Assembly: GCA_040509335.1 (NCBI GenBank)
Contig: JBEVLE010000636.1
Span: 3,164 to 67,163 of the forward strand
Reading direction: 5' to 3'
From: Longimicrobiaceae bacterium
GTDB lineage: Bacteria > Gemmatimonadota > Gemmatimonadetes > Longimicrobiales > Longimicrobiaceae
DNA: 64,000 nt
Positions 35,001 through 38,000 of this stretch are shown here, piece by piece. Both the position numbers and the translations under genes were made by a program. The notes beneath the pieces are model-generated. The model was not told the DNA's origin and ran no database searches. It saw only the letters and a list, made by a program, of their open reading frames with translations. The stretch's first letter is position 1, and every line of letters starts with the position of its first letter.

Positions 35001-38000
35001 GCGGGCCATGCGGCTGCGCGCGCCGGAGATCCCGTTCGTGTCCAACGTGACCGGGACGTGGATCCGCGCGGAAGAGGCGATGGACCCGGAGTACTGGGGG
35101 CGGCACCTGTGCGGGACGGTGAGGTTCGCGGAGGGGATGGCCGAGCTGCTGCGCGAGGGGAATTCCGTGCTGCTGGAGGTGGGGCCGGGACGCACGCTGG
35201 GGACGTTCGCGCTTCACGCGGGGGCGGCGGAGTCGGCCGTCTTCGCGTCGCTGCGGCACGCGTACACGCGGCAGCCGGACCAGGCGTACCTGCTGGAAAC
35301 GCTGGGGCGGCTGTGGATGGCGGGGGTGCGGGTGGACTGGGACGGCTTCGTGGCGGAGGAGCGGCGCCGCCGCACGCTGCTCCCCACGTACCCGTTCGAG
35401 CGGCAGGCGTACTGGGTGGATCGGCGGCGCCGCCGCCGCGCGCGCCGCAGGGGCGGGGAAGCCCCGGACCGCGCGAGGCGCGGGGGCCAGGGCGCGGAGC
35501 AAGGCACGTCCCCGTCTCCCGCTGGGGGCGGCGTCGGCAGGCTCGCGGCGCTGCGCCCGCGCCCGGAGACCGGCACCCGCTACGCCGCCCCCGCCGGCGC
35601 GGTCGAGGAGCGCATGGCCGCGCTCTGGCGGGACCTGCTCGGGTTCGAGAGCATCGGCGCGCACGACGACTTCTTTTCGCTCGGCGGCCACTCGCTCATG
35701 GCCACGCACCTGGCCGCGCGAATCCAGGCCGAGTTCCACGTGGAGGTTTCCCTCAACTCGGTGTTCGAGGCTCCCACGGTCGCGGGGATGGCGGCCCGGG
35801 TGGAGGAGCTCCGCGCCGTGGAGGAGCCGCGGGGCGCCCCCATCCGCCCGGTGCCGCGGACGGGCCCGCTCCCCCTTTCCTTCGCGCAGCAGCGGCTCTG
35901 GCTGGTGGACCGGCTGGAGCCCGGCACCCCCGTCTACAACATGCCCTTCGCGCTGCGCCTGCGCGGGGCGCTGGACGCGCGGGTGCTGCGCAGGAGCATC
36001 GGCGAGCTGGCGCGGCGGCACGAGGCGCTGCGCACCGTCTTCCGGGAGGCCGCCGGAGGCGCCGGCCCCGTGCAGGTGATCCACCCGCCCGCGCCGGTGC
36101 CGCTCGCGGCGGTGGACCTGCGGCGCGTGGCGGACGCCGAGCGGGAGGCGCGGCGCCTGGCGGGCGCCGAGGCGCTGCGGCCCTTCGACCTGGCGCGCGG
36201 ACCGCTGCTGCGGAGCACGCTCCTGCGGCTGGGCGACGCCGACCACGTGCTGTGCTTCACCCTGCACCACATCGTCGGCGACGGGTGGAGCACGCAGGTG
36301 CTCGTGCGCGAGGTCTCGGCCCTCTACACCGCCTTCAGCCGCGGGGGGTCGTCGCCGCTGCCGGAGCTGCCGGTGCAGTACGCCGACTACGCCGTGTGGC
36401 AGCGGGAGCGGCTCGGCGGCGGGGTCCTGGAAGAGCAGATCGGCTACTGGAAGCAGGCCCTGCGCGGCGCCCCCCCGCTGCTGGAACTGCCGACCGACCG
36501 GCCGCGCGACGCGGCGCAGGACGCGCGCGGCGGGACCCGGCGCTTCGCGCTTTCGCCGGCGACCTCGCGCGCGCTGCGGGCGCTTTCACGGCGGGAGCGG
36601 GCCACCCTGTTCATGACGGTCCTCGCCGGCTGGCAGGCGCTGCTGGGGCGCTGGGCCGGCACGGACGACGTGGTGGTGGGCACCCCCATCGCGGGGCGCA
36701 CCCGGCACGAGGTGGAGGGGCTGATCGGCTTCTTCGTCAACACGCTGGCGCTGCGCGCCGACCTGTCCGGCGCCCCCACCTGGACCGGGCTCCTGGGGCG
36801 GGTGCGGGAGGCGGCGCTGGGCGCGTACGCCCACCAGGAGGTCCCCTTCGAGCGCCTGGTGGAGGAGCTGGTGGTGGAGCGCAGCCTGACCCACACGCCG
36901 CTCTTCCAGGTGGCGTTCGCGCTGCACGAGGACGCGGGGCGCGGCGAGCGGCCGCCGCTCGGCGAGCTGGGATTGGAGCCGTTCGGGGGCGACGGGACGA
37001 CGGCGATGTTCGACCTGGAGCTGACGGTCACCGACGGCGGGGACGCGCTGGAGGGATCGCTCGGCTACCGGGCGGCGCTCTTCGACGCCGAAACGATCGC
37101 GCGCATGGCCGGGCACCTGGAGGTGCTCCTGGACGCCATGGCGGCCGCCCCGGGGCTCCGCCCCGGCGAGGTGCCGCTGCTGCGGGAAGCCGAGCGCGTC
37201 CAGGTGCTGGAAGCGTGGAACGCGACCGCGGCGCCGTACGCGACCGATGGTGGCCTCGCGGCCCTGTTCGACGCGCAGGCCGAGCGCACGCCCGACGCCC
37301 CCGCCCTCGTCTTCCGGGAGCGGACGCTCAGCTACGCCGAGCTGCGGCGGGACGCGGACCGGCTCGCCGGCCGCCTGCGCGCCCTCGGCGCCGGACCGGA
37401 CGCGCGGGTGGGATTGTGCGTGGAGCGCTCGCTGGAGATGGCCGTCGCCGTGCTGGCCATCCTCCGCGCCGGCGCGGCCTACGTCCCGCTGGACCCCGCG
37501 TATCCCGCCGAGCGCCTGGAATTCATGCTGGCGGACTCCGCCTGCGTCGTCCTGCTGACGCAGGAGCGGCTCCGGGACCGGCTCCCGGCGACCGGAGCGC
37601 CAGTGGTGCTGCTGGACGGTGAGCACGACAACGACGGGGATGCGGGAGCTGTTGCAGGCTGTTCCCTGTTCCCTGTTCCCTGTTCCCTCTCTCTCGCCTA
37701 CGTCATCTACACCTCGGGCTCCACGGGGCGGCCCAAGGGCGTGGCCATGACGCAGCGGCCGCTGCTCAACCTCGTCGCCTGGCAGCTCCGCGAGTGGAGC
37801 GGCCGTCCGGCCGCGCGGGTCCTCCAGTACGCCTCCGTCAGCTTCGACGTTTCCTTCCAGGAGATGTTCTCCACCTGGGCCTCGGGGGGCGCGCTGGTGG
37901 TGGTCCCCGAGGAGGCGCGCGGCGACATGGCGGCGCTGGCCCGGCTGGTGGAGCGGGAGCGGATCGGGCGCGTGTTCCTGCCGTTCGTCGCGCTCCAGCA

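Follow-up and report, generated by a model that had tools for sequence, protein, structure and literature searches.

A heptamer array in a Longimicrobiaceae megasynthase gene as a probable in-frame copy of a lineage-wide interspersed repeat

Results

A heptamer array lies directly before core motif A3

We analyzed a stretch of 64,000 nucleotides (nt) from a Longimicrobiaceae bacterium (contig JBEVLE010000636.1; G+C content 77%), referred to here as the window, in which an array of the heptamer CTGTTCC lies inside the open reading frame (ORF) of a megasynthase combining nonribosomal peptide synthetase (NRPS) and polyketide synthase (PKS) domains. We propose, with a probability of about 0.72, that this array is one copy, in frame and tolerated, of an interspersed repeat found throughout the lineage, which resembles the short tandemly repeated repetitive (STRR) sequences of cyanobacteria and the repetitive extragenic palindromic (REP) sequences and which prefers the loop between core motifs A2 and A3 of NRPS adenylation (A) domains. 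In this best-supported interpretation, the repeat family is new.

Tandem Repeats Finder (TRF) reported 4.3 copies of CTGTTCC with 100% matches and a score of 60 at 37,659–37,688, including four full units that span 37,659–37,686. A preliminary description of this DNA had placed four perfect units at these positions, within an ORF and next to A3, and this was confirmed, the A3 motif starting at 37,693 after a gap of 4 nt. The array is read in the frame of the ORF at 23,092–46,176 (7694 amino acids, aa) and encodes a 16-residue stretch. Together with two further copies, the array (copy 1) and its surroundings are as follows.

23,092–46,176, plus strand: gene C, 7694-aa NRPS/PKS megasynthase with a thioesterase at its end, host of copy 1 (ORF list; Pfam condensation, AMP-binding, PP-binding, KS, AT and thioesterase domains)
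37,651–37,662, plus strand: leader of copy 1, GTTGCAGGCTGT, 12 nt, overlapping the first unit (sequence)
37,659–37,688, plus strand: array of copy 1, (CTGTTCC)x4.3, perfect; leader and array encode a 15-residue peptide (TRF, sequence)
37,693–37,740, plus strand: A3 core motif (16 residues) of adenylation domain C5, directly 3' of the element (alignment to the LgrA and PheA structures)
46,266–64,000, plus strand: gene D, NRPS of 5911 aa or more, from ATG 46,266 past the window end, first domain an A domain, host of copies 2 and 3 (frame analysis, Pfam)
54,306–54,343, plus strand: copy 2, leader followed by CTGTTCC CTGTTCC CTATTCC CTGTTCC CT, in the A2–A3 loop of A domain D3 (TRF, sequence)
63,942–63,979, plus strand: copy 3, leader followed by CTGTCCC x3 and CTGTTCC CT, in the A2–A3 loop of A domain D6 (TRF, sequence)

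A 14-mer of two units, searched with up to two mismatches, matched nine times in the window, always within the three arrays; the mean in shuffled sequences was 0.16 and none of 100 shuffles reached nine. As the preliminary description had stated, the three copies are linked by a shared leader, whose 12 nt are identical at 37,651, 54,306 and 63,942, and by a conserved peptide, of which copies 2 and 3 each encode a 15-residue form. Their arrays are imperfect, with two CTATTCC-type interruptions in copy 2 (54,314–54,343) and further unit variants in copy 3 (63,950–63,979), so an uninterrupted non-triplet repeat within an ORF is found at copy 1. All three arrays are located between A2 and A3 and end directly before a 12-residue A3 stretch. 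The element occurs in 3 of the 17 A domains of the window.

The element is dispersed among Longimicrobiaceae genomes and lies mostly outside genes

One genome per species was scanned with a pattern of the leader plus two units (GTTGCAGGCTGTYCCCTRTYCC). At least 93 stretches matched, all of them from nine Gemmatimonadota/Longimicrobiaceae assemblies. The leader precedes every retrieved copy in the nine other assemblies, as the search pattern itself required. Among the matches listed, the A3 motif follows only about 22 of 101 exact copies; about 80% of the retrieved copies are located outside NRPS genes and about 20% in the A2–A3 loop of adenylation domains. According to heuristic gene calls, the non-NRPS copies are mostly intergenic and near gene ends or terminators. 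Among the 90 that could be evaluated, the tail of 41 lies within 30 nt (median 7 nt) of the stop codon of a convergent gene, and 28 are upstream of a co-directional gene. In 44% the upstream 70 nt fold far better than shuffled sequences, reflecting terminator-like hairpins or other small repeats.

In the position profiles, only (GCC)GTTGCAGGCTGT, the units and a short CCCTRYCGTTC tail are conserved, and conservation falls off sharply on either side. Lineage restriction, dispersal, extragenic bias and this confined conservation together lead us to regard the element as a lineage-specific interspersed repeat of tandem heptamers, of which the window holds three in-frame copies. The number of units ranges from 2 to 19 in extragenic copies and from 1 to 5 in coding copies, with four being commonest in both (56 of 107 and 13 of 22, respectively). 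Unit variants differ by assembly: CTGTCCC makes up 60% of the units in CAVTCB01, and CTGTTCC 61% in DASVQR01. Inverted doublets are a minority (about 6 to 8 among 125 leaders). No Rfam family matched 14 of the loci or the window region. A scan of viral contigs for the family pattern gave no matches, and thus no sign of phage origin. A literature search of incomplete coverage found no description of such repeats in Gemmatimonadota.

Several individual loci deserve mention. Long extragenic arrays have 19 units (L005) and at least 11 units at a contig end (L070), and a further array lies at a locus end (L011). Since at least one contig ends inside an array, heptamer repeats may break short-read assemblies. 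Element doublets are located directly upstream of an hslV-like gene (MAITQFHATTILAVRRDG) in two assemblies (L001 at about 3175; L006, minus strand, at about 75); judged from the sequence, this extragenic position is conserved across species. The clear coding copies all lie in the NRPS A2–A3 loop. A possible exception is L086 (DASSME010000154.1, minus strand, about 3264–3300), where a non-NRPS protein with a putative start codon may carry a copy in frame, after an N-terminus resembling a signal peptide and before the mature domain (...EPASPRQEVVAGCSLSPVPCPPSPLVFATARYESGDWN...).

Reading frame and unit number

In simulations, loss of one unit from copy 1 led to a stop after 28 codons and gain of one unit to 1367 out-of-frame codons, in agreement with the earlier statement that a change of one unit would destroy the 7694-aa frame. 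The preliminary description had seen in the array a hallmark of contingency loci. As such a locus, it would change its unit number by slipped-strand mispairing and in this way turn the assembly line on or off, reversibly, in part of the population. The perfect, non-triplet array of copy 1 would suit such a switch, and extragenic arrays of 7, 11 and 19 units indicate that the tract can expand. Slippage is also implied by the range of 2 to 19 units in the family. The unit numbers of the coding copies compare paralogs and orthologs of other species, rather than strains of one species.

The most direct sign of slippage is an ortholog of domain D2 in the metagenome-assembled genome (MAG) DASVQR01 (L048; at about 78.6 kb in DASVQR010000002.1, minus strand, locus positions about 6600–6630). 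It has three units, exactly one fewer, and is frameshifted: A2 and the canonical 11-residue stretch are read in one frame, PCSLSPDDLAY and A3 in another. Inserting a single heptamer brings back precisely the canonical peptide, and the shifted frame is open over about 100 codons. This one-unit-short allele shows that slippage-type change does happen at these arrays. The allele itself may represent a pseudogene, an OFF state or a choice made in assembly, which limits its weight in favor of a switch.

Against a switch, 15 of the 16 testable coding copies are in frame and the four-unit state is shared by 13 of 22 coding copies across several species; the element is mostly extragenic, where the reading frame does not matter. 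Copy 1 has only four units, and copies 2 and 3 are interrupted. The heptamer switch neuO (Escherichia coli K1, CUS-3 prophage) has 3 to 53 units, most commonly 20, and is out of frame in 65.6% of genomes; its repeat occupies the 5' end of a single gene, and within one culture alleles with a unit gained or lost can be measured (PMC13001214). Haemophilus heptamer tracts tied to phase variation have 13 to 38 units (PMC2651432). The two systems are alike in that neuO and gene C both carry 7-nt units inside an ORF, of which only some unit numbers keep the frame; the array described here differs in having four units, in being in frame in 15 of 16 testable coding copies and in belonging to a genome-wide element. 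With known heptamer switches at about 13 to 53 units, the reservation in the preliminary description that four units is short for high-frequency slippage proved justified. The contingency-locus interpretation is therefore partly supported, in that slippage-type change occurs; the array is not specific to the gene, and as a regulated switch it is decidedly unlikely. Two metagenome scans, one specific to the locus (flank plus leader) and one with an NRPS-specific gapped pattern, gave no matches.

Orthologous loops carry different cassettes

The closest relative found was CAVTCB01, with 88% nucleotide identity, and DASVQR010000002.1 contains an ortholog of gene D with 84% identity on both sides of the loop. 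Comparison of orthologous loops, whose flanks are 77 to 88% identical, revealed that they differ in their cassettes. The D2 and D4 loops are plain in the window and carry a hairpin plus heptamers in DASVQR, whereas the D3 loop, which holds copy 2 in the window, is plain in DASVQR. The C3 loop has a heptamer element in CAVTCB010000024.1 (L010, 88% identical to gene C) and a G/C hairpin cassette in the window. In the D5 loop of OY970303.1 the hairpin and a GAGCACGAC tag are kept, followed by leader and heptamers where the window has (CGCACTTT)x4.8. The cassettes of the window other than the heptamer element are listed below.

31,298–31,341, plus strand: G/C-rich hairpin cassette (C-run, GCAA, G-run) in the loop of A domain C3; second dispersed repeat family (the ortholog L010 carries a heptamer here)
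60,673–60,722, plus strand: the same G/C hairpin cassette (60,673–60,714) plus a AGCACGAC tag in the loop of A domain D5 (sequence, ortholog alignment)
60,740–60,777, plus strand: octamer array, (CGCACTTT)x4.8, in the D5 loop; non-triplet, encodes 13 residues (TRF, ortholog alignment)

Both hairpin cassettes encode a 17-residue peptide. Like the heptamer element, they are dispersed in the retrieved loci, mostly outside NRPS genes, and the octamer occurs 13 times in the window and loci, 9 of these outside an NRPS context. In the probable ortholog of copy 1 (L072), a 30-nt hairpin is nested inside the array. This hairpin-forming insert, GGCGCTGCACGCTCCGCGTGCACCGGATGAAC, interrupts heptamer arrays in two A domains of one MAG (L066, about 4826; L072, about 5962) and looks like a nested mini-element. 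L010 (3986–4209; MAG labelled MFD) contains a heptamer-free A domain whose A2 and A3 motifs do not share a frame, for which we suspect a long-read homopolymer error.

Differing cassettes could also mean that the repeats act as recombination patches, that is, that identical repeats of 45 to 100 nt before A3 provide portable homology for the exchange of A-domain cores (A3 to A9) between modules. A3–A9 is a common unit of exchange in natural NRPS recombination (PMC8097286), and therefore repeats at the A3 boundary, which the element abuts, could promote such swaps. Consistent with this, the two complete host domains of the window are more similar downstream of the loop (64% protein identity) than upstream (55%). 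Yet higher similarity after A3 is also seen in pairs without the element (D2–D5, 52% and 71%) and could result from a shared substrate, and none of 136 heptamer–heptamer pairs proved to be mosaic with its breakpoint at the element. Pairs initially flagged as mosaic were rejected as offset artefacts, the L048 flanks being 84% identical on both sides. As the family is mostly extragenic in addition, we consider recombination patches unlikely.

The coding copies share one orientation: in 54 A domains, 22 of 22 coding copies point the same way, and the reverse orientation has zero stop codons. Flanking DNA across 45 A domains revealed that heptamer bearers are no closer to each other than to domains without a heptamer. 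Uniform orientation in unrelated host domains argues against plain inheritance by domain duplication and against random insertion; oriented insertion or gene conversion would fit.

The translated element occupies a variable loop and has foreign codon usage

G+C at third codon positions (GC3) is 47% in the 17 element codons compared to 95.8% in gene C, and 9 of the 17 codons end in A or T. We relied on this contrast and not on the pairwise identity of the retrieved elements, a value that the search pattern inflates. That the coding copies are repeat DNA is also indicated by the two complete host domains of the window, which share only 55 to 64% protein identity while their elements differ by one or two bases. 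Aligned to LgrA, the peptide encoded by the element falls in the variable segment before A3 and adds almost no net length. An AlphaFold model reached a mean confidence (pLDDT) of 90.5; its lowest internal stretch spans about residues 141–160 (10-residue blocks of 68 and 50), between predicted strands 139–141 and 169–175, which in this model would be where the element is translated.

A selected protein feature, a Cys/Pro-rich 15-residue peptide with a structural or regulatory role in A domains, would account for the conservation of the peptide in the three window domains and about 20 others, always in one orientation and frame. The codon usage foreign to the gene is at odds with this, as are the same DNA being about four times commoner outside genes, orthologs without the peptide or with unrelated cassettes, and the low model confidence of the element stretch. 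A protein database search also did not reveal a CSLFPVP-type loop in the best 120 A-domain homologs, the closest of which belong to Longimicrobium and Longimicrobiaceae MAGs. These searches listed proteins of about 0.9 to 1.75 times the query length, so that full-length orthologs fell outside, and among those listed one additional protein with the peptide (P0122) was found. We regard a selected peptide as very improbable.

The same codons could act as a rare-codon pause site, where the A/T-ending cluster (9 of 17 codons in a gene with a GC3 of 96%) slows translation and aids folding of the megasynthase. Only 3 of the 17 window A domains carry the element, though, its position is within a subdomain and not at a domain boundary, and the extragenic majority cannot serve pausing, which makes a pause site extremely improbable.

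Other features of the window

Gene C, ending with a thioesterase, is followed by gene D, starting with an A domain, and the window thus seems to contain two adjacent assembly lines. The gap between them is 90 nt (46,177–46,265) and contains a promoter-like sequence.

46,193–46,220, plus strand: promoter-like TTGACG-N16-TAAAAT

A listed ORF at 46,193–60,151 was rejected as a gene, because it had zero Pfam matches and is a wrong-frame artefact. PLPRD repeats in a gene D linker (52,493–52,544) are encoded by about three in-frame tandem copies of the 15-nt unit CCCGCTCCCGCGCGA. For gene B, which starts at ATG 16,494, a look-up of the exact protein gave no record. The A domains labelled A4 (about 14.5–16 kb) and C7 (about 43.5–45 kb) have 87 to 91% protein identity, and the domains labelled A2 and C6 74 to 79%, which suggests, from sequence similarity, that portions of genes A and C arose by recent duplication.

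Discussion

STRR sequences of cyanobacteria were reportedly described by Mazel et al. in 1990. In form, these elements of heterocystous cyanobacteria are the closest known system to the repeat described here: both are dispersed arrays of tandem 7-bp units, mostly intergenic and often near hairpins. Their function is unknown (PMC2670836). The Longimicrobiaceae element differs in phylum and unit sequence, in its fixed 12-nt leader and short tail, in its modal number of four units and in its recurrent in-frame coding copies. In placement it is closest to REP, BIME and REPIN elements, sharing with them a high copy number, lineage specificity, a location after stop codons and beside terminators, and, in a minority, inverted doublets. 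In contrast to these elements, array and leader are not self-complementary, inverted doublets are few, and no GTAG or CGTC tag was seen.

In behavior, the closest system is the Rickettsia palindromic elements (RPE), which likewise have intergenic copies and in-frame copies that preserve the ORF and add a conserved peptide where the protein fold can accommodate it (PMC10969869). In our case, a fold-compatible surface position is indicated by the LgrA alignment and the predicted model. RPEs are palindromic elements of about 150 bp inserted in many unrelated genes (PMC10969869), whereas the element described here is about 45 to 50 nt long, consists of tandem heptamers and has nearly all of its coding copies in one loop of one domain family and in one orientation.

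We favor a tolerated in-frame copy of an interspersed repeat as the explanation of the window array. The repeat consists of the leader (GCC)GTTGCAGGCTGT, usually four (YCCCTGT) units and a short tail. It is mainly found outside genes, where it follows stop codons directly or neighbors terminator-like hairpins and further small repeats. A subset of copies lies in the poorly conserved surface loop between A2 and A3, where it is translated as the 15-residue peptide and tolerated as a loop, which would make the window array a passenger at the DNA level. The array would then encode no catalytic feature, its sequence being set by the repeat family and not by selection on the protein. Coding copies would be near-neutral for enzyme function, and changes in unit number would represent occasional mutations rather than a regulated switch. 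Entry into the loops and movement between them may have occurred by oriented insertion or by short-patch gene conversion beside the highly conserved A3 DNA.

Several points weigh against this explanation. Simple random insertion does not predict the single orientation of the coding copies, in spite of the absence of stop codons in the reverse orientation. The retrieval pattern demanded an exact leader and two units, which inflates sequence conservation among the retrieved copies, and the gene calls in the retrieved loci are heuristic and based on GC3. No transposase was identified, and neither terminal inverted repeats nor target-site duplications were noticed in the flank profiles, for which no dedicated analysis was made, so mobility of the element is something that we infer. 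The near-neutrality of the loop peptide is deduced as well, and the family may have a function at the DNA or RNA level. In this regard, it is speculation that the reverse-complement array, (ACAGGGA)n, resembles CsrA sites, that the leader is a DNA-uptake sequence or that KOPS-like motifs are involved.

A more active role is also conceivable. Heptamer, octamer and G/C hairpin repeats together could form an active, oriented system that rewrites A2–A3 loops, either as slippage-prone frameshift switches, with L048 as a true OFF state, or as portable A3 homology driving A-core swapping and product diversification. We consider such a system rather unlikely.

If the interspersed-repeat explanation is true, the window array should not be counted among phase-variation loci, and the explanation would extend to similar A-domain arrays in this lineage. 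The repeats may interrupt short-read assemblies and can cause frameshifts, a concern when biosynthetic gene clusters in these MAGs are annotated. The A2–A3 loop would be a naturally permissive insertion site beside the known A3 recombination boundary, with a bearing on NRPS engineering and megasynthase evolution. The family would further represent a second example, after the Rickettsia RPEs, of interspersed repeats translated inside proteins. In an understudied, NRPS-rich phylum, an STRR-like family would thus recurrently fill one adenylation-domain loop in one orientation, with orthologous loops differing in what they carry.

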